A DNA stretch of 64,000 bases from a virus. Below, piece after piece: positions 18,729 through 61,150 of the stretch (the stretch's first letter is position 1; each line of letters opens with the position of its first letter). Made by a program: the position numbers and the translations under genes. The notes under the pieces were generated by a model that ran no database searches, had not been told where the DNA came from, and was given only the letters and a program-made list of their open reading frames with translations. The stretch covers positions 8,103 through 72,102 of IMG/VR virus record IMGVR_UViG_3300036770_005462, one strand, 5' to 3'.

Positions 18729-20612
18729 ATGCCGTTGCCCCCGCAAGAATTCTTCATCGACAAGGTCTACGACGGCGTCGTAGACGAGCTTGAGCGCCTC
18801 AATACCGACACCGACGAGTACAAGGCCCTCTTCGAGTCCGTGCTGGGGTCACTGGCCGCAGCGCCTTTGCCGGTGCTGCCGCCGATCAGCTCGTTTTCGG
18901 ACCCGGCGGCGCTACCGGCGTCGGCGCTGCTGAACGTCACCAAGCCGACTGGCCCGGCAATCGATCTGGTCGGCATGAACATGCCGGCCGATCCCGCCAC
19001 GCTGGATCTGGCGGCGGATATCGCGGCGCTGATCACCTCGGTGCCGGAATTCAATCCGAGCGTTCTCGGGCTGAATCTCCCCAACGCGCCTGCCCCCATC
19101 GACACCAGCGGCCTGCCGCTGCGCCCCGACGTCGACGGCGCTATTACCCTGCCGGTGGCTCCCGATCTGAGCCTGCCGAGCATGGGTGCGCTCACCCCCA
19201 TCGTCATTCCGGAGTTCGTGTTCCCGACGCTGCCGACGTTCACCGAGACCATGCCGGTGCTGACGGCGCAAGCGCCGGACACGAATGTGGCGTGGGCCGA
19301 GCCTGCCTACGACAGCGAGCAGTTCAACGAGATCTGGCTGCGCGTCAAGGAAATGATGGCGGGCTCGCGTGGCTTGCCCCCGGCCGTCGAAGCCGCCCTG
19401 TTCGAACGCACCCGCGGGCGCGATGCGACCGCTGCATCGACGGCTGTAAAGGAAGCGTACGAGGCGTTTGCTGGCCGCGGCTACTCCATGCCGCCCGGCA
19501 TGCTGGTGAAACAGGTCAACGCGGTCATCGAGGACAGCCAGCTAAAGGCCAACGCGACCAACCGCGAGATCTACATCAAGAGCCACGAACTGCTGATATC
19601 TCAGCTGAACGTCGCTATCGAGCGCGGGCTGGCGCTGGAACAGATCAATTTCCAAGCCTTCACCAACGTGATGACCCGCTTGCTGGACATTACGAAATTC
19701 CGTGTGGAGTCCGCGATCTCTGTGTTCAACGCCGAAGTACAGGCGTTCAACATCCGCACGCAGGCGTACAACGTAGCGGCACAGGTGTTCAAGATCCTGA
19801 TCGACGCCGCACTTACGAAGCTCGAAGAGTTCCGGGCGCGCATCGAGGCGCAGAAAGCCATCGGCCAGCTGAACCAGCAAGTCGTGGACATCTACACCGC
19901 GCAGCTGGGCGCTGTCGAGACCAAGGTCAAAGCCTACGTCGCGACCATGGAAGGCGCGAAAGTGCAGACCGAGATCGTCAAGGCACAGATCGACGCTTAC
20001 CGGGGAGACATCCAAGCCTATGCCGCTCGCCTCGACGCCGACAAGACCCGCTTCGAAGCGTACGAAACACAGGTCAAGGGAGAGTCGGCCAAGGCCGGAA
20101 TCCTCGAAGCTGAAGCCCGGGCCTACGCTTCCCGCGTACAAGCCCTCGACGTAGCCGGCACGCTGTCGATGAAGAAGATCGACGCGAAGATCGAGAAGGC
20201 CAAGCTCGATACGCAGCAGTTCGCGGTGAAGGTCACGGCCGAGCGAGACCGCATAACCGCCCAAGCGGAGCAGTTCCGCGCGCTGGTGTCGAAGTACGCA
20301 GCTGATGTGCAGTCGTATGGCACCGAGCTGCAGAACAACGTCGCCACCCGCGAGCTGGACGTCAAGCGGCTTGAGGCGAGCCTGCGCAACGCCATTGCGC
20401 GGTACGAAGTAGAACTGAAGAAGTACGACGGCGAGACCAGCCGGATCATCGAGCTGGCACGGCTGAATCTGGAAAGCCTGCGGACGATGGCGCAGTACGC
20501 GGCGCAGCTTGCCGCGGGCGCGATGAGCGCGCGGAATATCAGTATGGGTGTATCTGGGCAGGGTCAGGGCTCTGACTCTCTCAACTACAACTACAACTAC
20601 AACTACGCGTAG
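18729..20612 (+). CDS. Coiled-coil internal virion / ejection-like protein (627 aa) ending in NYNYNYNYA
   Basis: The C-terminal 400 aa is heptad-like and Ala/Gln/Glu/Lys rich. The 3' end contains (AACTAC)x4. Confidence 0.5.
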   Translation: MPLPPQEFFIDKVYDGVVDELERLNTDTDEYKALFESVLGSLAAAPLPVLPPISSFSDPAALPASALLNVTKPTGPAIDLVGMNMPADPATLDLAADIAALITSVPEFNPSVLGLNLPNAPAPIDTSGLPLRPDVDGAITLPVAPDLSLPSMGALTPIVIPEFVFPTLPTFTETMPVLTAQAPDTNVAWAEPAYDSEQFNEIWLRVKEMMAGSRGLPPAVEAALFERTRGRDATAASTAVKEAYEAFAGRGYSMPPGMLVKQVNAVIEDSQLKANATNREIYIKSHELLISQLNVAIERGLALEQINFQAFTNVMTRLLDITKFRVESAISVFNAEVQAFNIRTQAYNVAAQVFKILIDAALTKLEEFRARIEAQKAIGQLNQQVVDIYTAQLGAVETKVKAYVATMEGAKVQTEIVKAQIDAYRGDIQAYAARLDADKTRFEAYETQVKGESAKAGILEAEARAYASRVQALDVAGTLSMKKIDAKIEKAKLDTQQFAVKVTAERDRITAQAEQFRALVSKYAADVQSYGTELQNNVATRELDVKRLEASLRNAIARYEVELKKYDGETSRIIELARLNLESLRTMAQYAAQLAAGAMSARNISMGVSGQGQGSDSLNYNYNYNYA

Positions 20613-26300: not shown

Positions 26301-29300
26301 CGACATGACCGAAGACGAGGTCGGCGAGACGCGCCGCCTCGAATTGATCAACGACCTGAAGAAGGCCGGCGGGGTCAACCTGCAGGACGTCATGGACGTT
26401 ATTGGCGAGCGCAAAGCCCGCGGCGTGAAGGTCATGCCGGGGCTGTTCACCAAGACCGGCATGCGCGTCGACATGCTCGCCGAGTGGATGGCCGAGAACG
26501 GCTACATCGCCGACGAGAGCGAGACCGACAAGGCGTGGGACATCGTCCGCGCCGCCACGGACAAGCAGGGCGTCTTCAAGATCGAGGATCAGGACGACCT
26601 CGGCCGTCGCCGCTTCGAAGAGCGGGCGAACAAGGAATACAGCCGGATGGATCTGTCCGGCGGGGCCGGCCAGAAGCTTACGGCCGACGAACGGCAGGCA
26701 CTGATCAAGGAGATCGTGCGGCTGCGCGGCACGCAGCTGCAGATCGCGTTCAAGGAGTTCGCCCAGATGGGTCCGGCCAAGCTGGACGCCAAGGGCAACC
26801 CGATCCTTGACGCCAACGGCGACCCGGTGCGGCAGGGTGCGTCTGGCGAGTGGTCGAAGGACAAGACCGCTGCCCACGCGCAGAAGATCATCACGCTGGC
26901 TGTCGACATTGGCTTTTCCAACGCGATGTCGGTTGCGCACCACGAGGCGGTGCACGACTTCTTCGCGGCGCTGCGCAGTGCGGATTCCTCGCCGGAAATG
27001 CGCAACATCGCCATGACTATCGAGCGTGTTGCGGAATTACCACACATCCGGAAACAGCTCGAAACGCTGCTGAAAAAGCACCCGGAAGCGCTGGAACAGC
27101 TCAAAAACCCTGAAGAGCGCGCAGCCTACCTGTTCCAGTTCTGGAAGGCGGGCCTCATCAAGGATCTGGCTCCATCGGCGCGCAATTGGTTCGAACGTCT
27201 GCTGAAGTTCCTCCGCGACGTGCTGGGCATCGTGTCGCTGGAAGAGAAGGGCGAGAAGCTGATGCTGGCGCTGGACGCCGGCAAGTTCACTGACGCCAGC
27301 ACCGTCGGTCGCGTGGTGGCCCAGATGAAGCTGGAAACCGCCGGCGACAAGCTGCAGCGCGTGGCTCCTGCGCTGTGGCATGTCGGAAACGTCGTCATGG
27401 CGAGCGTCACCGACCGCATGCGGCTGACTGAGGTGCCGGCCATCATGGCAATCGCCGACCGCCTGCACCGGGATGTCAGTCGGCAGACTGGCATGCGGGA
27501 CGACCGCCGCCCGGGGGCTACGAAAGCTGACCGGCGTAACGACCCCACCGAGCAGACCGACTTCCTTGACGCCAAGCAGCGCGCTAGCGGTATCTGGTAC
27601 TCGCAGCTGCTGAACCTGTTTCAGGGGGCCGACAAGTTCCAGATCGCCGACGCGCTGGAAGCGCTGCAGTCGCAGGAAGACAGCACGGACCCGATGGTGG
27701 TCAAGATCCGCGCCTTCCTGAAGCGCTTTCACGAGTACCTGTCGAAGGCTGACGTGATGGTCATGGACGACAGCCCGTACGAGAAGATCGACTCGAAGGG
27801 CAAGACCGTGTGGGTCTCGGGCGACGCAGCGCGGCGCTGGGTCCCGATTGCCGAGCGGCAAGTCGGGAACTACTTCCCGCGTTCGTGGGACCGCGAGAAG
27901 ATCATGGCCCACAAGGACGCGTTCGTGGACCTGATCGTGCAGAAGGGCCGCGAGGGCAACAAGACCGTGACGCGCGAGCGGGCACTGGAAATCTTCGACA
28001 CGATGACCAGCGCCGAGCAGGACGAGATCGCGGACGGCGCGGCGTTCACGCCGTACCTGATGAGCGCCAACACCCGGGCGCTGCGCTTCATTACCAAGGA
28101 CAACGCCAAGGACTTCGCCAAGTTCCAGAAGAAGGACATGGTGGCGATCCTGTCCACGTACACCTATCAGGCCGTGCACCGGGCGGAGTTCACCCGCTAC
28201 TTCGGCCATGACGGGCAGTGGATCAGGGAGAAGCTGGCGGAGGCCGAAGCTCAGGGTGCTACGCCCGAGCAGATGGCGACCGCGCGCAAGGGCGTCGAAG
28301 CCATGCTGGGCTCGCTGGGCCGCGACATGACTGAAGGCACCCGCAAGCTGATGACCTCGCTGATGGCGTACGAGAACATCGTGCTGCTGCCGCTGGCGCT
28401 GGTGAACAACTTCATGGACGTGCTGCAGATCGGGCTGCGTACCGGCGACCTGACCGAGTCATTCAACGCCATGAAGCAGGGGGTCATCGGCTTGAAGCGG
28501 CAGATCATGCGGGAGGGCCCGGACGAAGCCGAGCAGTTCTCGCGCTTGCTGGGCATGATCGACGAGAACGTCGAGCTGGCCAGCTACGGCATGCTGTACG
28601 ACGGTCACTTCATGGGCGGCATGGCGAAGAAGGTCAGCGACAAGTTCTTCCGCTGGAACGGCATGGCGACGTGGAACACGCGCATGCGCGTGGCGGCGAC
28701 GCAGGCCGGGGTGCGCTTCATCGAGCGGCACGCCGACAAGGCGCTGAAGGGTGACGAGCAGTCGATCCGCTGGCTGAAAGAGCTGGGGCTGGAAAAGAGC
28801 GACGTGCGGCGCGACAGCAACGGCAAGCCGATGTTCAAGCGCGAAGACTGGGCGCAGAAGCTGAACAAGCCGGTCGACAGCAAGGAAGTCATCGCCGCCG
28901 CTGACCGCATGCAGAAGGCGCTGTTCCTGTTCGTCGACAGTGCCGTGATCCGGCCCTCCGCGGCGCACCGGCCGATCTGGGGCTCCGATCCGCACTGGAT
29001 GCTGGTGTTCCACCTGAAACAGTTCACGTACAGCTTCCAGCAGGTGGTGCTGAAGTACACCCGCAAGGAACTGCAGCACGGCAACAGCTTCCCGGCCATC
29101 GCACTGATGATGTACGTGCCGTTCGCGATGGTGACCGACCTTACCCGGTCGGCCATCGTCGGACGCCCAATCGACTTCTCGCTAAGTGGGTTAATGGGTA
29201 GCGCAGTACGCAATTCGGCCGTGCTGGGTACTGGCACCTTCGGCATCGACGCGTGGAACGACCTTGGCAAGAATCAGGTGCCGGGCGCGTCGTTCCTCGG

Positions 29301-29430
29301 ACCCACGGCAGGTCACGCAATTCAGCTGCTGCAAACCATCGCCGGAAGCCCGCAGGACAGCATGTCACAGGCGGTCTTGCGCTCGCTGCCGGCTTCGCCA
29401 ATCCTGCGTGGTATCGATGCCCGGATCTGA
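23311..29430 (+). CDS. Giant virion-associated protein (2039 aa), likely an internal/ejection protein
   Basis: Uninterrupted 6.1-kb ORF, translationally coupled to the upstream gene. It contains a lone HExxH (AHHEAVHDF) at about residue 1220. No RNAP motifs are recognised. Confidence 0.6.
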   Translation: MAGLRLYSLPPEEERPLTPYEQAVRGVDSSGGEFGRGVTSGLLGAFGGGYNATAGAFQEAMGGDPTRSYDTSRGLLRRAGQAAPIVNNWDKVNGVGDFLDYAAGAAGQGLASTAPGVAATLLTRSPRVGLATMFPMEMGESVAATRFDPSIQQPDTATMLSGAATKGAVNTAIEAVPFMNIFGRGPLRPLMKAATMPARAGGHMLAEGGTELAQQRVGQLAQDYMVPGRDTSEDNMELREAFLQGTLGATPFAGMSLAGHAARDAGVGMSSAIDKLFPAKGEPTALDDLIESTKSVGTKLKEKFDPVLGKDTAETMENLRKPVDVDALNEGKQFNLMRPGVDTAEDDIKKKHSFLRQQLGNKHTWLAEPLAKAMDRYLRGDTPGGDDAKFKQAILEAFDGNVERANGVMEHFAKAVEDFSGTLGERTTIYDTAREPSWGDREADDDTAAAPEGPAIEEGGQEYTPKANYRFAGTGRLRPYENRAQAGAARRALGAAEGSKVKVRTMLDWAQERGKDPDKALTDMIGGLRYDLNDIQKRLQDRDMPKEQREDLLQRSNEIVSLLRKAIPTTDPDTGEITDSATERLSKLFVLRGEALPADDLTATSEEIAAYADKREAFGGAKGAMVKFRAPNGKVQNFNARQILDLGLKSWSKRNPDQKFVDGPAHWRRVYEDGIARLTNAGYVPDQSERNGAFRPSLVVRDGETYGGLVEKTAQSGQTFDALRDEQFGADAAADQRAILSEPMQASPQEIAARKAEGWVPPTVAPEEQSSGRGDRMVETNLLNRESQQGPEGNVGEGFDPTLNTLRDQDPDGPRLFDENIVNSANPDFAPERLEDTLAKPYMVPDKRAKGGARKAKGEEVRVSGAPLAQPQAATGSNLEKLQGLKDHIEAYRANLEQRGIDPTKAPTMRLLLKRMAELEAERTKLTKEDVAAEESVADTAAREEANRALKREEAAAEKTRMAEVTKTQVIEPAEKPKAAPKKSKKKAKGYRYEIKDDMTEDEVGETRRLELINDLKKAGGVNLQDVMDVIGERKARGVKVMPGLFTKTGMRVDMLAEWMAENGYIADESETDKAWDIVRAATDKQGVFKIEDQDDLGRRRFEERANKEYSRMDLSGGAGQKLTADERQALIKEIVRLRGTQLQIAFKEFAQMGPAKLDAKGNPILDANGDPVRQGASGEWSKDKTAAHAQKIITLAVDIGFSNAMSVAHHEAVHDFFAALRSADSSPEMRNIAMTIERVAELPHIRKQLETLLKKHPEALEQLKNPEERAAYLFQFWKAGLIKDLAPSARNWFERLLKFLRDVLGIVSLEEKGEKLMLALDAGKFTDASTVGRVVAQMKLETAGDKLQRVAPALWHVGNVVMASVTDRMRLTEVPAIMAIADRLHRDVSRQTGMRDDRRPGATKADRRNDPTEQTDFLDAKQRASGIWYSQLLNLFQGADKFQIADALEALQSQEDSTDPMVVKIRAFLKRFHEYLSKADVMVMDDSPYEKIDSKGKTVWVSGDAARRWVPIAERQVGNYFPRSWDREKIMAHKDAFVDLIVQKGREGNKTVTRERALEIFDTMTSAEQDEIADGAAFTPYLMSANTRALRFITKDNAKDFAKFQKKDMVAILSTYTYQAVHRAEFTRYFGHDGQWIREKLAEAEAQGATPEQMATARKGVEAMLGSLGRDMTEGTRKLMTSLMAYENIVLLPLALVNNFMDVLQIGLRTGDLTESFNAMKQGVIGLKRQIMREGPDEAEQFSRLLGMIDENVELASYGMLYDGHFMGGMAKKVSDKFFRWNGMATWNTRMRVAATQAGVRFIERHADKALKGDEQSIRWLKELGLEKSDVRRDSNGKPMFKREDWAQKLNKPVDSKEVIAAADRMQKALFLFVDSAVIRPSAAHRPIWGSDPHWMLVFHLKQFTYSFQQVVLKYTRKELQHGNSFPAIALMMYVPFAMVTDLTRSAIVGRPIDFSLSGLMGSAVRNSAVLGTGTFGIDAWNDLGKNQVPGASFLGPTAGHAIQLLQTIAGSPQDSMSQAVLRSLPASPILRGIDARI

Positions 29431-33673: not shown

Positions 33674-33741
33674 GACTTCCCCGAGGTCGTTAATTGTTGT
33701 TGTGAAAAAGAGGCGGGGGATTTGCTCCCCCGCCGTAACCC

Positions 33742-34875: not shown

Positions 34876-35406
34876 CTAGTCGAGGATTTGATGCAGGGCT
34901 CGATACAGCTCTCTGGCCGAGTCTTCACTGATAGTCCGTGCTTCGCCCTGACCTAGGTCAATTGTAATTTTGACTTGGCGTTCAACGCGGACTGCAATGG
35001 TAGTCGGTTTGTCGGTTTTCGCAACAGGCACCGAGACTTTTTTGGCAACGGCTTTTGGTTTCGCCGCACGGTCTTTGTATTTCTGCAACGCCCGTTGCGC
35101 GTGTGCATCGTACTTCGCCATTTCGGTGGCGATCTGCAAGCCCTTCTTGGAAGTCAGGCAGTAGTAGCGATACCGCAACCCGTAGCCGCACGCCTTATTC
35201 TCGGCAACTCGAATGATGTCGTGCGCTTTCCATAGTGCCGTGAAATGCGACGAGGCATGCTCGACATTGGGGAAGCGTTTCGGATCAAGGTCGAACAGAT
35301 CGGTCGAAGAAAGACCGTCGTCTCCTGCAGCGTCGATCAGGGAGAGGACGTACTTCTTCGCCTCCCCCTTATTTTGAGTAGTAGCGGGCATACTTTCCTT
35401 CTGCAT
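34876..35406 (-). CDS. Hypothetical protein (176 aa) with a Lys-rich C-terminus
   Basis: ORF only. Confidence 0.4.
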   Translation of the reverse strand: MQKESMPATTQNKGEAKKYVLSLIDAAGDDGLSSTDLFDLDPKRFPNVEHASSHFTALWKAHDIIRVAENKACGYGLRYRYYCLTSKKGLQIATEMAKYDAHAQRALQKYKDRAAKPKAVAKKVSVPVAKTDKPTTIAVRVERQVKITIDLGQGEARTISEDSARELYRALHQILD

Positions 35407-37201
35407 TGACAGGTAGATCAGGAGCCCATGCGGGCGGGGTTTTCATCACCCGAAGTCCGAAGTCGAGTGCAGCATCGGCTTCGTCCTCCGGGACGATGTA
35501 GGAAATCTCATCATGCGTCATCATCACCACGCGATACCGTTTAGCAATTTCAAGCATCTGGTCTGCTACCACACATCGCGCTAGGGCTTGTACAGCATTT
35601 TCGGTGAGCAATCCACCGTACAGCTTGACAGGCAACCCACGCTGATTGCGATAGTGACAGTCGATATAGCGACCAGACCATTCGTTGAAAAAGCCAGTGA
35701 TGTCGTTGTAGTGAATGGCGAGGCCGGAAGGAAGAATCATCTGTTCCTTCTCGACTCGCAACGCCTTGAAGTCGAATCCCTGCCCGCCAAGAATCATGAA
35801 CGCCATCAACTGTTCCATCGACTTCCATAGTCGACAGATATGCTCGTTGAACTCGCGATAGACGTTTACGATCTTTTGGCACTCTGACAATTCAAGCTGA
35901 CGCGGATTGAATTTGTCAGTAGCTAGTGTCTCTTGTAGTTTTTGTGCGCCCATCCCATACCCGAGCGCGAGTACCACGATCTTCCCCAATTGCCGTTCAT
36001 CGTCCGTGATGTCCGCGACGGCTTTCTGAAAGATTTTCGAGGCCATGACTCGATAGATGTCGGGGCCTTCGCGGCGGTCGTAACGACGGAAGATATCGAG
36101 CTTCTCATCGTCGCCAGCCAGCCACAGATTCATTCGAGCTTCGATCTGCGCCGAATCAACGGTGCAGACGACGAACCCCTCTGGGGCCAAAATAGATTTA
36201 CGCAGCTCTCCCTTTTGGGGGAGATTCTGCATGTTCATCTTGTTGCCAGCTGACCAGCGCGTCGTATGCGCGCCGCAGTACTGCAGCAGCACAGGCAAGC
36301 GCCAGCCGTTCTTGCCGGCATGGAGGAAGCGGTTGGCGCGCGTTTCGCCAAGCGTGGACTTCACGGCCAGCCGGGCGTCGATCACGTCCCGCAGGTTGCC
36401 GCTGGCTTTGTCACGTAGCGCCAGAAAGTCCACGTCCTTCTTGGCGAAGGCATACGTCATCTTGCCGGTGGTAAGGCTGCGCTTCATGGGCGGTTCCACG
36501 CCCAGCTCGCGCAGCAGATCAGCAAACTCGTCAGCAGAAGACAGCTGGTCGGCACGAACGCCGGCGCGCAGTACCTTGGCGACTTTCTGGCCGACTTCGC
36601 GTTCCAGTTCTGCTTCGACCCGCGGAAGGTCGACCAGCAGGATCGGATCGCAGAACATGCGCAGGGTCAGGTCGATCAGGTCGCGTTCGGCTGCAGGCAC
36701 TTTCGGGCATAGATACTTGTATGCCTCGCGCATGATCCAGACGTCTTGCACGCCATACTCGGCTAAATCGATCAGCTCGTCTTCGGTCAGGTCGCGCTTG
36801 CCCTTGGTGTCTTCGAGCTTGCCCTTGATCTTGCCGGGCAGTTTCAGACGGGCAGCAACTTCGTCGAGCCGATGCAGGACGTTGGCTCCCCAATGCGCGC
36901 GGGACAGCAGCATGGTGTCGCAGTAGCGCGCCGGGATCTTGCCGTAGTGATGCGATAGGATGAATCCATCGAATGCGGTGTTGTGACAGATAAGTTCTAT
37001 CTCGTCCCAATCCCATTCGTCGAACAGCTTCTGCAGGCTTTCGGTGGAGGCCCACTGCAGTGGGCCGTCATCGAACGCCCACTGCACCATGTGGGCCTTA
37101 AACCGTTCGTCGCGGATGTACTCGCTGGTCGACATCTTGGCCGACGACAGCGTGTAGCCCTTGTCGTAAAACGTCTCGAAATCTAGAAACAGCTTTTTCA
37201 T
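35369..37201 (-). CDS. Family A DNA polymerase with an N-terminal 3'-5' exonuclease domain
   Basis: Exo I motif LDFETFYD, a motif B-like RQLGKIVVLALGYGMGAQKL, and motif C MMTHDEISY. Confidence 0.8.
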   Translation of the reverse strand: MKKLFLDFETFYDKGYTLSSAKMSTSEYIRDERFKAHMVQWAFDDGPLQWASTESLQKLFDEWDWDEIELICHNTAFDGFILSHHYGKIPARYCDTMLLSRAHWGANVLHRLDEVAARLKLPGKIKGKLEDTKGKRDLTEDELIDLAEYGVQDVWIMREAYKYLCPKVPAAERDLIDLTLRMFCDPILLVDLPRVEAELEREVGQKVAKVLRAGVRADQLSSADEFADLLRELGVEPPMKRSLTTGKMTYAFAKKDVDFLALRDKASGNLRDVIDARLAVKSTLGETRANRFLHAGKNGWRLPVLLQYCGAHTTRWSAGNKMNMQNLPQKGELRKSILAPEGFVVCTVDSAQIEARMNLWLAGDDEKLDIFRRYDRREGPDIYRVMASKIFQKAVADITDDERQLGKIVVLALGYGMGAQKLQETLATDKFNPRQLELSECQKIVNVYREFNEHICRLWKSMEQLMAFMILGGQGFDFKALRVEKEQMILPSGLAIHYNDITGFFNEWSGRYIDCHYRNQRGLPVKLYGGLLTENAVQALARCVVADQMLEIAKRYRVVMMTHDEISYIVPEDEADAALDFGLRVMKTPPAWAPDLPVNAEGKYARYYSK

Positions 37202-37663
37202 CTATGACTGGACTACGAAGGCATTCTCGCTGCGTTTGGTTATCTTGATCTCTGCGCCAGCAGCGGCGAGCTGCATCATGGCTACTGCGCGATCAGGCCA
37301 TTCATACGTGTTGCCTTCCCAGTTCAAATGAACGAACGCGCCGACATTCTTGGATGGTTCATTGAAGTGCACGATGAAGTGGTCGCCGTTAGCCACTTTC
37401 TTGCGAATGATGTCCAGCAAGTTTTTGATCGTTGGCTTGGGCGTTGCGTCCTGCACGGCTTTCTGCATTTCGTACTCGGCCTTCATCTTCTGCATTTCAA
37501 GATTCAGCTTCGCCACTTCCAGATCCATCATCATTTTGTCGTGCAGCAGACGAAAAGCGCAGTTTTCTGAGCTTGATTCTGAATCCTCGGGCGGCGAATT
37601 TGATGGCAAGAGTTTCCGCATCGAATTCATCAAACCGGTACCAAGCTGCACTAGTCGCTCCAT
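37202..37663 (-). CDS. Hypothetical protein (153 aa)
   Basis: Its stop is adjacent to the polymerase start. Confidence 0.4.
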   Translation of the reverse strand: MERLVQLGTGLMNSMRKLLPSNSPPEDSESSSENCAFRLLHDKMMMDLEVAKLNLEMQKMKAEYEMQKAVQDATPKPTIKNLLDIIRKKVANGDHFIVHFNEPSKNVGAFVHLNWEGNTYEWPDRAVAMMQLAAAGAEIKITKRSENAFVVQS

Positions 37664-42465: not shown

Positions 42466-43572
42466 CTAGGTTATTGCTTCTGCGTTGCGAGCGGCCCAAC
42501 TATTGAATGCCTTGGTATCGGCCAGTTCGGGAATCCGAGTGACCGAATCTTTCACTAGCGTCACGCCGAACTCCGTCGGTAGACGATCTGCATACTGGAT
42601 CACGCGTTCGAAGTTGTCGGACGTGGACTTGACGGCCAGACCGGACACCGTGGCGTACAGCGTGGCAGGCTCTTCCGGCACCGGCGCGTTGCCCGGGTTC
42701 ATCAAAATGTTGTCGAGGTTCGGTGCGCGGCGCGAGTACTTCATGTACTCGACGAATTTCGCTGCTGGGCCCTCGCCTACTACCGAGCCGTAGGTCTCGT
42801 ACTCGACTTCCGCCGGAATCCCCGCGGACAACAGACGAGAAAGGAAGGCCCAGCTGCGTGGTGTGGCGAATGCGCGGGCATCCTTGGCGCGTTGTTGCAT
42901 CTGTTGTTGACGGACTTTGTCGTCACCAACATCGAATTCGTTCAGGAGATCGGGGGCGGAGGAGATAAAGCCGAGAACGTCCGAGTGGACGCCATGAGTG
43001 AGTGCCCAATGCCGCCAGTCATCCAGATTCACTTCCACTTCGATGTGGATGAACCGGTTGCGCAGCGCCATTGGCATCTGGTTGACTATGGATCGATCCT
43101 GTAAGCGGTTACCCGCAGCGAGGACGGCCCATCCAGCTGGCAGTTCGTAATTACCCAGCCGTCGGTCGAGGACCAATTGATATGCAGCGGCCATCGTTCC
43201 GACACTGCCGCTGTTGATTTCGTCGAGGAACAGGATTCCACGGCTGTCGAGGTCGTGGGGAAGAAAGTCAGGGGGGTTCCAGACCGTGCGTCCGTTTTCG
43301 CGGTGCGGTATTCCACGGAGGTCGACGCTGTCGAGCTGGCTGATTCGAACGTCCCGCAGCTCCAAACCGTGATCTTCACAGAGCTGCCTCACGAGGTCGG
43401 ACTTTCCGATCCCGGGTGGGCCCCACATCATCGCGGGAATCTTCGCTAGTACTGCTGTTCGAAGTACGGCTGACGCCTGACTGGGACGCATGCAACGAGG
43501 CTCCTTGCTGGTTACTACGAATGAACATTCGAACGAGTGCCGCGAATGCAGCAACTCCGAGAGATACATCAA
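42466..43572 (-). CDS. MoxR-like AAA+ ATPase
   Basis: Walker A MWGPPGIGKS, Walker B ILFLDEIN, and sensor/Arg AGNRLQDRS...ALRNRF. Confidence 0.7.
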   Translation of the reverse strand: MMYLSELLHSRHSFECSFVVTSKEPRCMRPSQASAVLRTAVLAKIPAMMWGPPGIGKSDLVRQLCEDHGLELRDVRISQLDSVDLRGIPHRENGRTVWNPPDFLPHDLDSRGILFLDEINSGSVGTMAAAYQLVLDRRLGNYELPAGWAVLAAGNRLQDRSIVNQMPMALRNRFIHIEVEVNLDDWRHWALTHGVHSDVLGFISSAPDLLNEFDVGDDKVRQQQMQQRAKDARAFATPRSWAFLSRLLSAGIPAEVEYETYGSVVGEGPAAKFVEYMKYSRRAPNLDNILMNPGNAPVPEEPATLYATVSGLAVKSTSDNFERVIQYADRLPTEFGVTLVKDSVTRIPELADTKAFNSWAARNAEAIT

Positions 43573-50799: not shown

Positions 50800-51005
50800 C
50801 CGCAGCAACTGCGCCCGCAGCACAGGAACTCGCGCTCGCGGGCGCGTTTGGCCTTGCGCTCTTCTTCCTCGCGCTTGGCGCGTTTGGCCGCTTCGATGGC
50901 TTTCGCACGGGCTTCGGCGACTTTGGCAAGCAGCACTTCGTCGGCAGACAGCTCGGTTTCGGGTTTGGGAGCGTCGCCTTCGTTAGGCTTGCGCTGTTTC
51001 AACAT
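50800..51005 (-). CDS. Small K/E/R-rich protein ending in a CCGRSCCGR motif (about 67 aa from MLKQRK)
   Basis: Its start (ATG) is adjacent to the AAA ATPase stop (TGAACATG). It has a charged helical body and a C-terminal CC-x3-CC. Confidence 0.4.
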
Positions 51006-52419
51006 GTTCAACGGTCCTTGTGTGATGCAATGCGTTAAGAGCCGCAATTTCACGCGGGCCCGCAAAGTCAGTCAGGGCCTCGCTGTGATCGACGTTGGTG
51101 TTGGCGATGAAGATGGACTTGACTGCCCGATGAACGTCGTCCGGCAGGACTCCGCTTGCCTTCGACGAACCCGCCGCAAGGTCGCGGTGGAGCGCATTGC
51201 TGGTTGCGTGTTCAACCGCTCCCACGATAAGCGCTCCACTGACCAGATGGGAGAGGCAAAAGCGACTCCGAGTCCGGTCCGAGAATGCGACGTCGTAATA
51301 CGCATGCTCAGGAGCGAAAAGCGCGTCGGTGAGCGTAGAAGCAAGGCTCGGCACGTCATGACCTTCTGCAATCGTGGTGGTTGAGAAGGCGAGCCGGGCA
51401 ATTTCCAGTGTTGAACGAATATCGGGACGCGATACGCGTATCTTTCGATCCATGCGGCCTTCGCGCGTGATGGCGCTGTCCAGAGACGACGCGCGGTTAG
51501 TCGCGACGACAACAATCGCGCCATTTTCGTCGAGCCCATCCATCTCAGCCAGAAATGTCGGGACAACGGTTTTTTCCATGAACGCATGACGATTGCTTCG
51601 GGAGCCAAGAAGGGCATCTGCTTCATCGATGAAAATCACGGCTGGTGTGCCGGTCTCCTTCTGATGGAATCGGGCGTCGGCGAAGATATCGCGAATGCGC
51701 GACTCCGTCACGCCGACGTACTCGTTCAGCAGTTCTGCGCCTTTGATGTAGATAAAACGGGTTTTTGTGCCGCCAACAGCCGTGGCGAGTGCCTTGCCCA
51801 GCATGGTCTTGCCGCAGCCGGGCGGGCCTTCGAGTAGCACGCCTTTGATGGGGCGCTTGCCGTAGCCTTTGTACAGCTCCGGATACTTCCGCGGTAATTC
51901 GACGGCCTCGATCAGTGCCAGCTTGGCGTCGTGAGCCCCGCCGATGTCATCCCACGTGACGTTGGTTGACGCCGTGAAGATGTATTGCTCGGCCTTGTTG
52001 GGGTAGTGCGCCACGATCACCATGCCGTTGGTGTCGAGGACAACCTTGTCGCCTTCCTTGATGGTCTTGCCGAAGCTGCCACGCAAGACGGTGCGTTCCA
52101 TGCCGTTGATGCTGATCTCGACGATCTGGCCGTCGAGTTCACGAGTCACTGGCACCAGCTCGCCCATGCGCGCCGGAAAATCCAGATGATCGACATATTG
52201 CATCGATTTGGGATGCAGCAGAATGCTGTCGCCGGAAGCAACCGCGGCTTCCTTGGGTTTGCCGATCCGGAGCATAGCTCCGCCGGCAGCGATCAACATG
52301 TATGTCTTGCCGGTGGCAAGCACAGTTCCGACAGGCAACGGAGCTTGTGCAATCCGTTCCAGTTCGCCTGACAGTTCTTCGACTTGAGACTGCAACTCCT
52401 TGACAGCGGTAGCGCTCAT
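50983..52419 (-). CDS. Classical-clade AAA+ ATPase with an N-terminal coiled coil and an OB-like domain (PAN/ARC/Mpa-like architecture)
   Basis: N-terminal coiled coil (ELQSQVEELSGELERI), beta-rich interdomain, Walker A GPPGCGKT, Walker B IIFIDEAD, and second region of homology (SRH) ATNRASSLDSAITREGRMDRKI. There is no C-terminal HbYX motif. Confidence 0.7.
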   Translation of the reverse strand: MSATAVKELQSQVEELSGELERIAQAPLPVGTVLATGKTYMLIAAGGAMLRIGKPKEAAVASGDSILLHPKSMQYVDHLDFPARMGELVPVTRELDGQIVEISINGMERTVLRGSFGKTIKEGDKVVLDTNGMVIVAHYPNKAEQYIFTASTNVTWDDIGGAHDAKLALIEAVELPRKYPELYKGYGKRPIKGVLLEGPPGCGKTMLGKALATAVGGTKTRFIYIKGAELLNEYVGVTESRIRDIFADARFHQKETGTPAVIFIDEADALLGSRSNRHAFMEKTVVPTFLAEMDGLDENGAIVVVATNRASSLDSAITREGRMDRKIRVSRPDIRSTLEIARLAFSTTTIAEGHDVPSLASTLTDALFAPEHAYYDVAFSDRTRSRFCLSHLVSGALIVGAVEHATSNALHRDLAAGSSKASGVLPDDVHRAVKSIFIANTNVDHSEALTDFAGPREIAALNALHHTRTVEHVETAQA

Positions 52420-52659: not shown

Positions 52660-54056
52660 CTAGTGACTTTCCGTGGTCATCACATCGCGAACGATGTTGC
52701 GGAACTGGCTGTCGAGGCTCGGCAGCTTCTCGGGGCCGCGATCCTTGTTGAGCAGGCGCAGCTGGCCCTGCATCGTGGACGCGGCTTCGATCAGTGCGGC
52801 TTCGGTCAGCATCTTGACCTTCTCGCCGGGCTTCTGCAGCGACAGCTGCGACAACTTCGCCCGCTTGACGACTTCCGCGATCACCGCGGGGATCGTGCCG
52901 GACAGCAGTTCGCCGACCTTGTGCAGGTCGGTGTCCTTGGCCAGCCGGTCGCCTGCGTAGACACGCAGGAGTTTCTCGACGGCAGGACCGTCAGGTTCGG
53001 CCACTTCGATCACGGCGTCGAGACGCCCCGGGCGCAGCATTGCCGGGTTGATGTTTTCGAGGTGGTTCGACGTCAGGATCACCATGATGTTCGCCGACTT
53101 GGTGTCGATGCCATCAATGATGTTCAAGATGTCGTCCATTTCCACCGTGCGTTCGCCGTTGAGCGAGCGGTCGATGTCTTCGCAGAAGATCGCTGCCGCC
53201 GGCTCTTGGTACTGCTTGGCGAAGCTCACTGCGTCGGCCAGTTCGTCGGCACGGCCGACGTAGATGAACGTCACGCCAGCCTCGACTGCGCGTTTGGCGG
53301 CAACTTTCGCTGCCAGTGTCTTGCCGGTGCCGTATTTGCCGCCGAGCAGCACACCGCGCTTGATCGGAATGCCGTTGGCCTTCAGGTCCTTGTGTCGCGT
53401 GATCGGCGTGAACAAGTTCACGTTGATCGAATTCTCGACTTCTTCAGGGAAGACCATCAGCGACTCGTCGACGTCGTCGTGCCGCATGAATTTCGGTTCC
53501 GGCATCGCCAGCCGGTCGCCATCTTCGTCGGTGAAGCGGATCTTGATGGCTTGACCGCGGTAGATCGAGTTCAGCTTCAGATACTCGCGCACTTCCTTGT
53601 ACAGCGCTTTGACGGTGTCTTCGTCCTTGCGCTTGACACTGGCGACGAGCGCGAAGCAGAGCAGGCCATCTTTCTTGTTGGCATCGCACTGCACGTAACC
53701 GTCTTGAATCGTCGGCATGCTGAACCGGCCCCACGGGACGTTGTGCATCTTCCCGGGTCCGATCTCGATGGCGATCATCTGCGGCGGTTGCTTGCCGAAA
53801 AAGCTCGGAACACCTTCCGCCGCGGCCCAGCCGAACTTCTGACGCAGGACTTGTTCCAGCGCGTAAGCGCCGTCCCACGGGAAGACGTTGAACGTCTCGT
53901 TGATGACGACCGGCTCTTCGAGGTACTTCAGCCGGCGATTCAGCAGATCGATGGCGTCCGGAATCTTCATCTTCTCCGGAAGAATCAGTTGCTCGCCGGC
54001 ATGAACAACTTCAGCGACGACAACTTTGGGGCCTTTCTTTTCCAACGTTTCACCCA
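52660..54056 (-). CDS. Second classical AAA+ ATPase with a roughly 250-aa N-terminal domain (likely start MGETLEKK, SD AAGGAG)
   Basis: Walker A GGKYGTGKT, Walker B IFCEDID, and SRH SNHLENINPAMLRPGRLD. The ORF-track start at 54153 is probably an upstream in-frame extension. Confidence 0.7.
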
Positions 54057-54210
54057 TGTGGGCGCTCCTTTTGTGAGTGGAACTACATGACAAGACGCAC
54101 GGCAGGTTTTGCCGACGTTTCCTTCGTGGTCCGCGTAAGCTCGTGCGGTCCAAACTTCGTGAATAGAATTACGATGAAGACGAAGAGCCAGAAAAGAGAG
54201 GCTCCAACGA

Positions 54211-56895: not shown

Positions 56896-59214
56896 TCATT
56901 GCACTTCTTTTTGGGCTTGTGCGAGCCATGTGGGGTCCGATTTCCAGTCGACTTTGATGCCTCGTACTGATTTCGCACCCGACCACACATAGGTCATGTG
57001 GATCTGCTGGTGCTTCAGATATGAGGTGAATTTGTTCGGTGTTTCAGGGCAATTGCCGACGCAGTAGCGAAAGATCGTCATCAATTCGTCGCGAGTGAGC
57101 TTGTCATGCCCAGTCAGGACGATTTCCTTCATCAGTTCCTGATACTTCAAGGTGATCATCTGCTTCGGGTCGTTAGGGATCAGTCCACCCGGAAGCGTTT
57201 TCATTGGTGCAGTAGGCAGCTGGTCGTAGAAGAACTGCAGGTCGCCGTCGCGTAGCGCACGTGCCACGACTTCTGCAGCCTGCATGTTGGTCTCGATCAG
57301 TTCCTGTCGGCCTTGTGTGTTCAGTGGACGCTTGGCGCGTTCCCGGTCCGCGGGGTATGTCATCCAGAAGCTGTACATCTGGTGCAACTCGCCATCGATC
57401 TGGGCAATCTCTGCTTCCGTGATGTTGATGGCTTTCTTCTGGTAGTTACCTACGTTGAAGCGGCGGTCGTCTTGTGCCACGACAATCGGATCGGGCATGT
57501 TCGACGTGAAGATCATGTTGCAGTAGTTGCGCGCCATATACGGTTCGCGATACATCTTGCGAATGCTGATGTGGGGCTCCACCATCAGGTTCTTCAGCTT
57601 GCTGGTGATCTTGGCCTGCTTCAGCGATGCGCTGGTCTGGATCTCGTCGACCACCACCAAGAAGACGTTCTCGAAAAAGCCGGTGAAGTCCTGTTCCAGT
57701 TCCTCCATCCGCTTCATCGTCATGTTCTGGGCACCAAACAATGGCATCAGGATGCGATTCATCAGCAAGCCTTTGCCAGTGCCCTGCGTCCCATGCAAGA
57801 TCCACCCGGTGTAGGTGCGATCCAAGTACTGGAAGATGCACGCCATCCAGTTGTTGAAGTGGTCGACGATCAGGGGGTCGTCGCCACACACGTGGTGGAT
57901 GATCTTGCTGCAGACGGGCGGCATCTTGCGCGTGGGAGTGAATTCGCCCTTCATGAAGGAGCTGGGGCGATAGACGTTCAGCTTCTGTTCGCGCAGATAC
58001 ACCACGGTGCGGTCGTGTGGATCGAAGATGATCCGCCAGTCCGGTACGAAGTCACCTAGCTCGGTGCCGTGCTGCTTCATGAAGTGGCGCAGTTGAGTCT
58101 CGCTGCGCGCCACACTAATTTCCAGTTCGTCGGTTTCTTGGTCGTACCAGCCGTTCCAGTACTGGGCGCTGTTGAAGTCGCGGAAGGCGAGCAAAATGCG
58201 GGAGTTCTGTTGCTTGGCTTGCAGACGTAGTTGAGCGTAATAGTCGGGTACTAGCTCCTCCGTTTTGTAAACGGGCTCGCCCTTGAAGTTGAAGATGAAT
58301 TCGGGGTTGTTCTCGTGGTGCCAGTAGGCGAAGCTGTCACCGCCGTTCAGGTTCAGGTAGACGAAGCCTCGTTCGTGCTTGACGCCTGTCACCACCGCGG
58401 TGTCAGGTTTCGCCATGTATTCGATGGTGTTCTCGACCTTGTACTGGGACGCTCGGCGCTTGGGCAGGTTGGCGTTCTTGCGCAGCTCGTTGATCCGGTC
58501 GTCGATCATCTGTCGAATGGCGGTGGCGCTGGGGATCATTTCAGGCAGGGCGAGGGATGCCTTGGCCTTCTTCACCACTGTGATACGGTTTGGGCCCAGC
58601 GGGTCAGCGATGCCTTCCAGCTGGGGCGGGGCGATGTAGATCAGCTTGTCGTTCTGGCACGTGGTGATGTCGAGCGGCCAGATCAGGGCGCAGCCGGTCT
58701 TGGTAAGCCGGGTGTCGCGGCGCAGCACGTCCAGTGTCAGGTTCTTGTACTGCAGGAACTGCTTCAGCAGGGCTGGGTGGTAGGGCTGGTCAAAGTGCAC
58801 GAACACGTGGCAGCGCAGGCCGGTGGACGAAGGGTCGATGCCGTGGCTGGCGCTGTACTGGGCAACGTAGGAGACGTCGCCAAAGCCCATGTCCTGCATG
58901 AAGAAGTCCGGACTGGCGTAGCCGGCTCCGTCCAGATCGAAACAGCCCCACGCTGTAATCTGGTTGGCGTCGGTTGAGCCAGCCCGGGATTCGGAATTCA
59001 GGGGCGTTGCAAGCAGCCCCTTCAGGAGGCAGTGACCTTGGTCACCGTGCACCTTGATCAGTACAGCAAGGTCATCAAGGGTAGGGGCGGACTCTTCGAA
59101 CGAGGTGAAAGCGTACGCGTTGGGATACGCGGTTTTACTGATAGTGCCATCGGGCAGGCGGCGGTAGGACTTGACCAGCGGAGTCTCGCTGGCCTTCAGG
59201 AAGACCAATTTCAT
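56896..59214 (-). CDS. Primase-helicase (primase/polymerase-like N-terminal region + P-loop NTPase/helicase C-terminal region)
   Basis: 772 aa. The C-terminal half has Walker A LHGTQGTGKGLLMN and a downstream Walker B-like VVVDEIQ, consistent with a D5/SF3-type or DnaB-like helicase fused to an N-terminal primase-like region. Confidence 0.6.
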   Translation of the reverse strand: MKLVFLKASETPLVKSYRRLPDGTISKTAYPNAYAFTSFEESAPTLDDLAVLIKVHGDQGHCLLKGLLATPLNSESRAGSTDANQITAWGCFDLDGAGYASPDFFMQDMGFGDVSYVAQYSASHGIDPSSTGLRCHVFVHFDQPYHPALLKQFLQYKNLTLDVLRRDTRLTKTGCALIWPLDITTCQNDKLIYIAPPQLEGIADPLGPNRITVVKKAKASLALPEMIPSATAIRQMIDDRINELRKNANLPKRRASQYKVENTIEYMAKPDTAVVTGVKHERGFVYLNLNGGDSFAYWHHENNPEFIFNFKGEPVYKTEELVPDYYAQLRLQAKQQNSRILLAFRDFNSAQYWNGWYDQETDELEISVARSETQLRHFMKQHGTELGDFVPDWRIIFDPHDRTVVYLREQKLNVYRPSSFMKGEFTPTRKMPPVCSKIIHHVCGDDPLIVDHFNNWMACIFQYLDRTYTGWILHGTQGTGKGLLMNRILMPLFGAQNMTMKRMEELEQDFTGFFENVFLVVVDEIQTSASLKQAKITSKLKNLMVEPHISIRKMYREPYMARNYCNMIFTSNMPDPIVVAQDDRRFNVGNYQKKAINITEAEIAQIDGELHQMYSFWMTYPADRERAKRPLNTQGRQELIETNMQAAEVVARALRDGDLQFFYDQLPTAPMKTLPGGLIPNDPKQMITLKYQELMKEIVLTGHDKLTRDELMTIFRYCVGNCPETPNKFTSYLKHQQIHMTYVWSGAKSVRGIKVDWKSDPTWLAQAQKEVQ

Positions 59215-59524
59215 GGCAGGTTCAGTGGGGTTGGACTACCGCCAGTTTAGGAGAAAACGAGGGTCTTATGTGAGAAGCGTCTGTTGGGACTTTTTCGATT
59301 CTCACAAAAAGATTGAGATGCAGATTTTTTGCTAGGAAACCGCTGTGAGGATTCTCGAAATGAGATGCACCTAACCCCTTGATTCCTTTACTCTCTCTTA
59401 TTCTCTCATCTTAAAGTAAGAAAAAAGTAACAAAAGAAGAAGAAGAAGAAAGGAGAAGAGAAAGAAGAGATATATATAAAGGATAGGAAGGGGGGTTTTG
59501 TGTGGGATTTTTCGAGACTCAGAC
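59215..59524. other. AT-rich about 300-bp intergenic region with a pyrimidine tract, an 80-bp purine tract including (GAA)5 and ATATATATA, and short repeated TTTCGAGA/GAGATGCA motifs; candidate origin or early promoter region
   Basis: Directly visible in the sequence. It contrasts strongly with the GC-rich surroundings. It lies immediately upstream of the primase-helicase gene. Confidence 0.5.
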
Positions 59525-59950
59525 CTACGGGTTTTCCCGCGGTTGGGTCATTCTCGCCAACAGGTCTCGCGCTTGGGCGACGACTTCTTCGGTGGGTTCC
59601 TGATCCGGATCGTCGTTCGTAGTGGCCTGTTCGACCGCCTGTTTCAGCAGTCCGAAGATGATCTTGTTGCGCAAGGCATCCATGATTTTCTTGTCCTTGT
59701 TGACGACACCGGTGCAGAACTCCAACAGGTAGTCGTCGGCGAGGTCGTCAAACAGGGCACGCAGCTTCGGACGGTGCTCCGTCCGGCATTCGTCGTGACC
59801 GCAGTCGTGCGACTCGATGATGGTTTCGATGACCCCGGCGGTTTTCATGACGCCGCTGTACAGAATGGGGTACTTGATGGCGATCTCCGCCATGCTCAGT
59901 TTGGGCAACTCTTTGCCGTCGTTCCGTTCGAATTCCATGTGGTGTCCCAT
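59525..59950 (-). CDS. Hypothetical acidic protein (141 aa)
   Basis: ORF only. Confidence 0.4.
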   Translation of the reverse strand: MGHHMEFERNDGKELPKLSMAEIAIKYPILYSGVMKTAGVIETIIESHDCGHDECRTEHRPKLRALFDDLADDYLLEFCTGVVNKDKKIMDALRNKIIFGLLKQAVEQATTNDDPDQEPTEEVVAQARDLLARMTQPRENP

Positions 59951-60013
59951 GTGGCCCGGGGCCTGTGAAGGAAATGGGTCAGGGGTGGTCAGCCCCTGAC
60001 CCGCCTGCTGTGG

Positions 60014-61150
60014 TTACAGCTTGTCTTCAGCCATGTCCTTGATGCCGCCAAGGTCGACGCCGGTTTCTCGGTCGCGTCGTGCCTGTGCTGCCTTCAGGCG
60101 CTTCTGCAACTGACCCATCTGGGTCTTCACTTCCTTGAACGAGGCGCAATGCTCCTTGACCCAAGCGTCCAGCAGGATCAGCGCGAGTTCGCTGATCATG
60201 AGGTCGGTCATGAGCTTGTCGCGCAGATCTCCTTCGGGCAGACCTGACAGGGTGATTCTGATCTTGCCGGTCTGGGGTGCGACGGAACTCGCGATGTTGT
60301 TGCGCACCCGCAGGATCATCGATTCCTGCATTTCCCGCGGGAGCTTGTTCCAGCCGTTCGCGCTGGGGGCGATGGTCATGCCATCGATCTCGGAGAGCAC
60401 GTCGGCCATGCGGTTGAGGGCTTCGCCTGCGAACCGTTGCCGCTTGCGCAGTTCGTTGGCCAGCGCTTCTTCCTCGCTCGCATTGAACTGCTTCGCGTTT
60501 TCCTTGATCTGCGTCTGCTTGGCCGCGCTCGGGAGCTTGTTGTTCTCGATGCGGTTGCGCAGGGCCGACTCAGCGCTGACGAACTTGAGCGCGAGGTCGG
60601 GGATGCCGCGGTACAGGATGTCCTGACGGCGGGGCAGGTGAGCGTTCTGGCTTTCGACCCCTTCGTACAGGTATGTCCGGGCTTCCTCGCAGGCGAGGGC
60701 AATTTCGAGCGGCTTCAGCGCGGGGGTGAACCCCATGTCTTCGGTCGCGTGGTCGTGCTGTTCCTCGCCGCGGTGCTTCTCATCGCGTTCGTTGCGCTGG
60801 TCGAGCGTGGGCACGCTACCCTTGACGGGCGTGCGGGTGGTGCTACCGAGGTCGGTGCCCGGGATTTCCTGCATGTTGTTCTTCACATGCAAGTCGAGTT
60901 GGAAGACCATCTGGCCGGTGAGCTGGTTGCACATCTTGGTGGCCAGCAGTTGGCCTTCCTCGGTGTGCATGTGCTCGTCCAGCAAGTCGAAGAAGTTGGC
61001 GTGGATCGTCGGAGCCGGCTCTTCGCTGAAGCTTTCCGGCTGGTTTTTGCTAGCGGATTGCACCGCCGCTGCCATGGTGGTGGGCGCGGGGTAGTCGCCG
61101 CTGATCGTTCCGGCAGGGACTTGGATTGTGCGTGGTTCACGGGTGGTCAT
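60014..61150 (-). CDS. Hypothetical protein (378 aa)
   Basis: Long ORF with a charged C-terminal half. Confidence 0.45.
   Translation of the reverse strand: MTTREPRTIQVPAGTISGDYPAPTTMAAAVQSASKNQPESFSEEPAPTIHANFFDLLDEHMHTEEGQLLATKMCNQLTGQMVFQLDLHVKNNMQEIPGTDLGSTTRTPVKGSVPTLDQRNERDEKHRGEEQHDHATEDMGFTPALKPLEIALACEEARTYLYEGVESQNAHLPRRQDILYRGIPDLALKFVSAESALRNRIENNKLPSAAKQTQIKENAKQFNASEEEALANELRKRQRFAGEALNRMADVLSEIDGMTIAPSANGWNKLPREMQESMILRVRNNIASSVAPQTGKIRITLSGLPEGDLRDKLMTDLMISELALILLDAWVKEHCASFKEVKTQMGQLQKRLKAAQARRDRETGVDLGGIKDMAEDKL

Follow-up and report, generated by a model that had tools for sequence, protein, structure and literature searches.

The DNA considered here is a 64,000-nucleotide stretch, referred to below as the window, which corresponds to positions 8,103 to 72,102 of the virus record IMGVR_UViG_3300036770_005462 and belongs to a metagenomic phage contig of about 72 kb that was recovered twice. 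The plus-strand arm of the window, with apparently structural genes, extends to about 29.9 kb; there it meets the minus-strand arm, which starts beyond 64 kb. The second arm carries the early and replication genes, including a family-A DNA polymerase, an SNF2 helicase, a deoxynucleoside monophosphate (dNMP) kinase and AAA ATPases. Within it, a non-coding gap of 310 nucleotides (nt) at 59215-59524 separates two minus-strand open reading frames (ORFs) of 141 and 772 amino acids (aa), and this gap is described here as a candidate replication origin. The locus and the polymerase gene of the same arm are laid out as follows.

59215-59524, no strand assigned: the whole candidate origin element, delimited by the ORF map, with no ORF of 20 aa or more in its core on either strand
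56896-59214, minus strand: primase-helicase gene, 772 aa, the presumed initiator, with AEP-primase, SF3-helicase and C-terminal winged-helix-like parts
59525-59950, minus strand: 141-aa ORF, which marks the boundary of the element and has no Pfam, PHROG or NCBIfam match
35369-37201: family-A DNA polymerase

The element lies upstream of the primase-helicase gene, not downstream, and the stop codon of the gene is separated from the next ORF by 12 nt only. Two independent assemblies (L002 and L003) show no difference in the sequence of the element. The 141-aa ORF is not kept at the corresponding position in relatives of the phage, and neither its product nor the 378-aa protein encoded upstream of it has a family match or a sequence match in the PDB. 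Near and distant DNA searches of phage genomes gave no match to the element itself; the same searches matched part of the primase-helicase gene, in phages of the KPP25 group only. Among cultured phages, only KPP25 and phiR18, which infect Pseudomonas and belong to the genus Kochitakasuvirus, are related, with 42% protein identity to the 772-aa protein and about 65% DNA identity across part of the gene. The phage is a distant metagenomic relative of KPP25 and phiR18.

The preliminary description of this DNA had reported an unusual AT-rich tract upstream of the primase-helicase gene, and the tract was confirmed as a strong outlier in the 64 kb, at exactly the coordinates given for it. The guanine and cytosine (GC) content of the window is 59.0%. 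The 100 nt with the lowest value, at 59386-59485, have 28%, compared with 38% for the runner-up anywhere in the window. The duplex stability, calculated by the nearest-neighbour approach, has its global minimum at the same core, where it amounts to -112.6 kcal per 100 bp (mean, -153.0; z = 5.3; runner-up in the window, z = 3.1). This region is composed of the following parts.

59386-59485, no strand assigned: AT-rich core, the candidate DNA-unwinding element, with the lowest GC content and lowest duplex stability of the window
59375-59412, plus strand: pyrimidine-rich arm, 87% C/T, which holds the tandem 10-mer TTACTCTCTC twice at 59388-59407
59413-59492, plus strand: purine-rich arm, 90% A/G, with a 39-nt pure run at 59432-59470, (GAA)5 at 59436-59450 and TATATATA at 59471-59478

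The 39-nt run is the longest homopurine/homopyrimidine run of the window, the second longest having 16 nt, and the second-best 80-nt stretch reaches 69% purine. The (GAA)5 repeat and TATATATA reported earlier are both present. The run that had been called CT-only is pyrimidine-rich but not pure, since its 38 nt contain 5 purines, and the 80 nt that had been called AG-only are purine-rich with an uninterrupted purine run of 39 nt only. On the minus (gene-sense) strand, 59375-59412 reads as a purine arm, GAGAGAGTAA / GAGAGAATAA, which adjoins the IHF-like site described below and can be aligned with the purine arms of the related loci L086, L004, L005 and L089. The sense-strand block CCTTTATATATATCTCT of the purine arm matches CCTTTTATATATACTCTCT in L086, and the borders of the core, CCTTTATATATATCTCT... 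and ...GGAATCAAGGGGTTA, are alignable with those of the same relative.

The two arms are partly complementary, as had been stated, with 74% complementarity over 27 nt and a 30-nt spacer. The extrusion of a cruciform, which had been suggested on this ground, was rejected, because the single-stranded DNA fold does not surpass composition (z = -0.83, with 40 of 200 shuffles equally good); the cruciform potential is thus a consequence of base composition. The formation of H-DNA, also proposed earlier, is a possibility at the sequence level only, as the mirror symmetry in the purine arm, beside the 39-nt pure purine run, has arms of just 9 nt.

Short repeats and one IHF-like motif surround the core.

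59372-59384, minus strand: IHF-like motif AATCAAGGGGTTA, at the border of the core, a match to the consensus of the integration host factor (IHF)
59508-59521, minus strand: iteron-like repeat TGAGTCTCGAAAAA, on the far side of the core, written TTTTTCGAGACTCA on the plus strand
59291-59304, minus strand: iteron-like repeat TGAGAATCGAAAAA, the second direct copy, written TTTTTCGATTCTCA on the plus strand
59350-59360, plus strand: inverted degenerate third copy GATTCTCGAAA, on the gene-proximal side of the core
59314-59322 and 59361-59369, minus strand: two copies of TGCATCTCA (TGAGATGCA on the plus strand), the sole exact copies in the window
59269-59274 (minus strand), 59301-59306 (plus strand) and 59344-59349 (minus strand): CTCACA/TGTGAG cluster, 3 of the 10 copies of the window

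The IHF consensus used is WATCAANNNNTTR, as quoted in PMC10380432 and PMC9452768. The motif AATCAAGGGGTTA is its sole match in the 64 kb; since about 0.56 matches are expected there, the location of the match is informative, not the count. The recurring motifs noticed earlier, two copies of TTTTTCGAnnCTCA and two of TGAGATGCA, were found as described, each pair being the sole exact occurrences in the window. The pattern TGAGWMTCGAAAAA has exactly two exact matches in the 64 kb, at 59291-59304 and 59508-59521. The segments 59350-59360 and 59510-59520 form an 11-nt inverted repeat, 91% complementary, which brackets the core, and such a convergent layout is the commonest pattern among the relatives. 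The CTCACA/TGTGAG cluster has a Poisson p of 8e-6, not corrected for how many k-mers were tested, and the core motif TCTCA/TGAGA occurs 5 times in the element against 0.23 expected. In a shuffle test on the flanks, the best direct match (12/14) was reached by 3.7% of the shuffles and the inverted match by 25%. The repeat set of the gap is sparse relative to the sets of most relatives, and no second cluster of its motifs was seen elsewhere in the 64 kb. The repeats in the window alone are only marginally above chance, and the case rests on the relatives.

Homologues of the primase-helicase are numerous in metagenomes, with 1992 at E <= 1e-20 among the candidates scored; a search of viral_contigs gave no relatives of the protein. 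The loci compared, each spanning 6-8 kb and numbered with the prefix L, comprised the close relatives L004, L005 and L086-L089 (56-59% identity) and 80 further loci (37-53% identity). In nearly all of the loci fetched, the homologous gene is preceded by a large non-coding region of like anatomy and different sequence, and the elements can be aligned only at motifs. The gene adjoins the element in about 70 relatives, as it does in the window, and most of some 70 related loci show this architecture. The GC minimum of the locus lies no more than 800 nt upstream of the primase-helicase homologue in 50 of the 66 loci on which this count is based, where 8.2 are expected by length; this and the other counts from the relatives are somewhat inflated, because several metagenomic loci are near-duplicates. 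The cores of the relatives have 8-35% GC. Their left half is pyrimidine-rich and their right half purine-rich in 36 loci, and the reverse layout occurs in 5. This pyrimidine-then-purine layout is strand-symmetric, a dyad, and is uninformative on the orientation of the element relative to the gene. The sole feature that gives the element a polarity is the IHF-like motif. L012, L015, L042, L056, L071, L081, L082, L086, L087 and L089 have it at the corresponding border, oriented towards the gene as in the window, and L004 has it with one mismatch; in all, its position and orientation are kept in at least 12 relatives. Within the upstream 800 nt, 15 matches are in sense and 2 in antisense orientation, and the density there is 0.27 per kb, against 0.027 per kb elsewhere. 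Among the relatives, L033, L042 (with two copies), L056 and L080 carry perfect DnaA boxes, TTATCCACA, in their elements.

The repeats of the relatives are denser than those of the window. The exclusive iterons listed here are locus-specific 7-8-mers, all copies of which in the locus lie inside the element.

L086: TCTTACG, 11 of the 11 copies of the locus
L056: CTTACGA, 11 of 11
L042: GGTTGGA, 8 of 8
L064: GTTGCGA, 8 of 8
L035: CCTAGCA, 6 of 6
L004: CCTCACA, 5 of 5
L089: CCTCACA, 3 of 3

Such iterons flank the core and stand in pairs or triplets with a spacing of 8-11 bp, in both orientations, spread over about 400 bp. In 10 of 17 loci, against an expectation of 25%, the innermost copies converge on the core. 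The arms of the relatives look partly complementary because inverted copies of the iterons sit within the purine arm. The closest relative of the window, L004, shares with it the motifs CTCACA (three times in the gap), CATCTCA (twice) and TCGAAAAAG, and has CCATCTCA four times in the homologous region. L004 and L089 are the two closest relatives that share iterons with the window, and the exclusive iteron of both, CCTCACA, contains the CTCACA of the window. L086 and L056, whose primase-helicases are 42% identical, share the iteron CTTACGA, and the primase-helicase is the only protein common to both loci. Written in one orientation, the iterons of L004-L089 and of L090, the phiR18 locus, are TCGTAAG, TCGTAAC, TCGCAAC, TGCTAGG, TGTGAGG, TCGAAA and TTGAGA, which appear as variations on one theme; this likeness between short sequences hints at a single diverging DNA-binding domain.

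The relatives L009, L011, L033 and L039, which have repeats of the CCTAGCA/CCTATCA type, carry a gene for an XRE-family helix-turn-helix (HTH) protein (Pfam HTH_3, E 1e-9 to 1e-12). It is inserted between the element and the primase-helicase, some 60-320 nt ahead of the latter. In the window and in L004, L086, L056, L035 and L010, iterons occur without such a gene, and therefore the small XRE-type protein is not the general reader of the iterons. These observations bear on the main rival of the origin reading, in which the gap is a transcription-control region with the promoter and operator array of the replication ("middle") operon. The repeats would then be operators of a phage regulator, the AT tract would be UP-like or curved, and the IHF site would be an architectural aid. 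Such a role, which could coexist with origin function, is considered unlikely, though it deserves more weight than any other competing account. The element lies directly upstream of the replication operon, the XRE-type HTH gene is interposed in the four loci mentioned, L009 and L039 have a sigma-70-like promoter (10/12 matches) ahead of this gene and just downstream of the element, and IHF sites are frequent at regulated promoters. However, about 100 nt separate this promoter of the relatives from the AT core, which lies upstream of it and is distinct from it, and the preliminary claim of an early promoter was not upheld in the window, where no sigma-70-like promoter was found in 58500-60500, other promoter types being outside the scan. 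An array of 8-11 repeats that point both ways and extend over about 400 bp, together with DnaA boxes, would also be an unusual layout for operators, and the repeats are present irrespective of the HTH gene. The occurrence of iterons both with and without it is counted in favour of the origin reading.

The tracts of the core are simple repeats, which raises the question of whether they could be functionless low-complexity DNA, that is, (GAA)n, (CT)n and (TA)n microsatellites expanded by slippage in a tolerated gap. The TATATA block directly adjoins the IHF-like motif in L081 and L087, and about 90 nt of the CT/AG tract lie between them in the window and in L086, which suggests that the tract has been expanded. 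Nevertheless, the position, the dyad layout, the flanking repeats and the IHF-like motif are kept across proteins that are only 37-60% identical, and the element is identical in two independent samples. This is the least credible of the accounts considered.

An equivalent element was found in the cultured phage phiR18 (LC102729.1; L090 22590-23266), as a 677-nt non-coding gap at positions 36589-37265 of the record, where it is unannotated. It lies about 11 kb further upstream of the primase-helicase gene, within the same transcription unit. Its core has 20% GC. The 7-mer TCGTAAC has 8 of its 9 copies inside the element (49.6 kb examined), GTCACGA has 6 of 12, and three 49-nt direct repeats occur 79-88 nt apart. 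The 141-nt gap directly upstream of the primase-helicase homologue of phiR18, with 4 kb on either side, contains no AT-rich element. Thus, adjacency to the initiator gene is common and not obligatory. Searches of the literature turned up no replication origin described for phages of the KPP25/phiR18 type or their relatives, and the papers on the genus that these searches covered mention none. With the phiR18 match, this type of element reaches isolates that can be tested at the bench.

The protein encoded next to the element in the window was compared at the level of sequence and of structure. In sequence searches, residues 373-726 match the helicase region of the primase-polymerase of phage NrS-1 (6k9c, E = 6e-48), as well as Pfam DUF5906 and VapE-like, and the helicase region matches TIGR01613, "phage/plasmid primase, P4 family", below its cutoff. 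The full-length AlphaFold model has a mean pLDDT (the predicted local confidence score) of 88. Its structural matches are NrS-1, PriRep1 and PriRep5 of Staphylococcus aureus pathogenicity islands (SaPI), poxvirus D5/E5, papillomavirus E1, C962R of African swine fever virus (ASFV), Rep of adeno-associated virus (AAV) and the large T antigen of simian virus 40 (SV40); the closest are NrS-1, SaPI PriRep and poxvirus D5. All of these are SF3 helicases working at viral or mobile-element origins. The N-terminal domain of the modelled protein is AEP-like, and residues 683-754 follow the order helix-strand-helix-helix-strand-strand, a winged-helix pattern as far as the order of secondary structure goes. 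By these structural matches, which confirm the SF3 fold, the 772-aa protein has the fold of self-loading SF3 initiator-helicases. The start of its gene (59205-59214, CCTGCCATG) has no Shine-Dalgarno sequence, and the same is true of the starts in L005, L087, L088 and L089 (...CCTGCCATG or ...CCGCCATG). A Shine-Dalgarno sequence is present for roughly half of the other genes of the window, and distant relatives have AGGA/GGGA-type sites before the primase-helicase.

The element is probably an iteron-type replication origin of the phage, or at least a site where the initiator assembles. An origin with an unwinding element and iterons beside the primase-helicase had been put forward in the preliminary description; its architecture is borne out by the relatives, by phiR18 and by the protein fold, and it is from these that the function as an origin is inferred. 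Several steps can be envisaged for its action. The 772-aa protein would bind the short repeats that flank the core, which in the window are GAGWMTCGAAA, CTCACA and CATCTCA. A host bending protein of the IHF type would bind AATCAAGGGGTTA at the edge of the core. The core of about 110 bp and 28% GC, which is the least stable duplex, would then melt, and SF3 hexamers would load outward, one per strand. The primase domain would begin synthesis, and the family-A DNA polymerase of the phage would extend the product. As the pyrimidine-then-purine layout is the same on both strands, each outward 3'-5' helicase/primase would travel on a pyrimidine-rich template.

A number of points weigh against this reading. 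The entire case rests on likeness of architecture. The repeats of the gap are few, with 2-3 copies each of three motifs, and marginally significant in the shuffle test, and the near-duplicate metagenomic loci inflate the counts from the relatives. The DnaA box (TTWTNCACA) is absent from the element of the window, its only match in the window being at 33701. In phiR18, the distance of about 11 kb from the primase-helicase gene means that adjacency is not universal. The cumulative GC skew, which had been proposed as a check of the origin, has no sign change at 59.4 kb; the plus strand is richer in G than in C over nearly all of the 69 kb available, and because no switch occurs anywhere in them, the test is uninformative and not refuting. 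The IHF-like motif, AATCAAsnACTTA, is more conserved than the IHF consensus demands, and judging from this conservation it could instead be the site of a phage protein. Finally, the predicted recognition helix in the C-terminal domain of the primase-helicase, SPNKFTxxLKHH, is nearly invariant among phages with different iterons, and a scan for protein segments that co-vary with the iteron type gave a weak signal, in a variable stretch before the C-terminal domain.

A more specific version of the origin reading gives the pyrimidine/purine dyad a functional design of its own, so that it would not be a mere by-product of the iterons. In such a "polypurine-primer" origin, two SF3 helicase/AEP-primase hexamers facing outward would each load on a near-pure pyrimidine template and prime from it, and synthesis would begin with primers made of purines only, such as (GAA)n. 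Supercoil-driven triplex formation or melting of (GAA)n might be the trigger of unwinding, and the reader of AATCAAsnACTTA might be the invariant helix at the C-terminus of the initiator, not IHF. This version is speculative, and its probability is low, below that of the transcription-control account; if it were true, it would belong to a large, mostly uncultivated phage family.

The gap was also considered as a structured RNA of a polycistronic early transcript, for instance a long pyrimidine/purine hairpin, which could be an RNase III site, an attenuator or an element of translational control of the primase-helicase. As RNA, the whole gap folds better than its shuffles (z = -2.7; 1 of 100 shuffles equal), and the start of the primase-helicase, CCTGCCATG, is one without a Shine-Dalgarno sequence, as would suit translational control. 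On the other hand, the central hairpin is explained by composition, no U-tract terminator was found, and the conserved features are DNA-type motifs in both orientations, not compensatory base pairs. A scan of the gap against Rfam 15 gave nothing at the gathering score (best match 19.8 bits, gathering 107), the sub-threshold matches being weak ones to microRNA-like hairpins, and a tRNA search of the gap found none. A role as RNA is accordingly given little credence, close to that of functionless DNA.

Another type of protein-DNA assembly site would be a partition centromere, a recombination site with attP-like arm sites, or a packaging-recognition site. P1 parS and lambda attP contain repeats in both orientations around an IHF-type site, and an IHF-like motif is conserved here as well. 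Nevertheless, no integrase, ParA/ParB or similar protein is seen among the annotated neighbours or the large proteins of the early arm, and the attP and parS readings were rejected on this basis. The terminase lies about 10 kb from the element, on the other side of a divergent region, and such sites normally lack a 100-bp unwinding-prone core or DnaA boxes. Taken together, these sites are very improbable, only marginally less so than a structured RNA.

The iteron-type origin proposed here can be compared with three groups of known replication systems. The origins of SaPI consist of 6-12 iterons that stand to both sides of an AT-rich centre and change their orientation across it, and the SaPI Rep-type protein reads iterons of 5-6 nt through a C-terminal winged helix (PMC9371898). 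The convergent iteron syntax of the relatives is that described for these origins (PMC9371898). In other respects the phage differs from SaPI and the wider phage-inducible chromosomal islands (PICI). Its element is upstream of the initiator gene (11 kb away in phiR18), whereas the SaPI origin is immediately downstream; the phage is autonomous, has a genome of 72 kb and encodes a polymerase, whereas SaPI is a satellite; it adds the IHF-type motif, the DnaA boxes of some relatives and the long pyrimidine/purine dyad; and the sequence identity between the proteins is only about 12%.

The second system is the alpha protein of phage P4, in which a primase, an SF3 helicase and a C-terminal origin-binding domain are joined in one polypeptide that recognises repeated short sequences. 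Its primase is of the DnaG/Toprim type, whereas that of the phage protein is AEP. P4 also requires a second repeat cluster (crr) some kilobases off, whereas none of the motifs of the window was seen clustered twice in the 64 kb.

The third group is formed by the theta plasmids and lambda (pSC101, R6K gamma, P1 oriR, ori-lambda), whose origins combine iterons with an AT-rich unwinding region, IHF sites and DnaA boxes, and whose AT-rich region has a purine/pyrimidine strand asymmetry. The initiators of this group (Rep, Pi, RepA, lambda O) lack helicase activity of their own and depend on recruiting the host DnaB, in contrast to the putative SF3 helicase initiator described here. Their iterons are direct repeats of 17-22 bp and not 7-8-mers in convergent pairs, and DnaA boxes are part of their origins, whereas the element of the window has none. 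The resemblance to the primase-polymerase of NrS-1, a deep-sea vent phage, and to poxvirus D5/E5 is on the protein level only. The best explanation is that the candidate origin works like the Rep/ori of SaPI and the alpha/ori of P4. It would be a strict member of neither family, because its position relative to the gene differs, the protein identity is about 12%, and there are extra host-factor motifs.

If the origin is confirmed, its recognisable syntax of convergent iteron pairs, an AT core and an IHF-like motif would make it a defined landmark for annotation. The different iterons of the relatives would provide natural initiator/iteron specificity pairs, on which origin recognition by SF3 primase-helicases could be studied, and the phiR18 element (record 36589-37265) would be a testable counterpart in cultured therapeutic Pseudomonas phages. 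Nothing would be overturned, as the design is that of the familiar origin of iterons plus unwinding element; its use would lie in a large, mostly uncultivated phage group.

Several other features of the window and its surroundings were noted. Between the genes for the 378-aa and 141-aa proteins, the minus strand at 59976-60002 contains a G+C-rich 10-bp hairpin, GGGTCAGGGG...CCCCTGACCC, with no T-run, at which the transcript could be processed or transcription could pause. Just beyond the window, at L002 4462-4921 (window coordinates 64294-64753), the terminase and early operons diverge, and the region that separates them contains two copies of GGGGGGCCACTTCGGAT, several TCAGAAAAA-like motifs and GGGTAC palindromes, and is probably an early promoter/operator region. 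In the early arm, two adjoining minus-strand genes encode AAA ATPases (Pfam AAA; 50983-52419 and about 52660-54057). The phiR18 homologue of an early-arm AAA ATPase is annotated as FtsH, and a further AAA_5 protein is encoded at 42466-43572. In the structural arm, the 627-aa ORF at 18729-20612 has a sub-threshold match to PF06023, a Csa1/Cas4-like exonuclease (24.2 bits, cutoff 27). The largest gene of the window, the 2039-aa plus-strand ORF at 23311-29430, is without a Pfam match, as is the 1209-aa plus-strand ORF at 7073-10702. The latter contains tandem repeats of 42/84 nt (14 or 28 codons) at 8168-8396 and 9435-9915, and is possibly a repetitive fibre or decoration protein.

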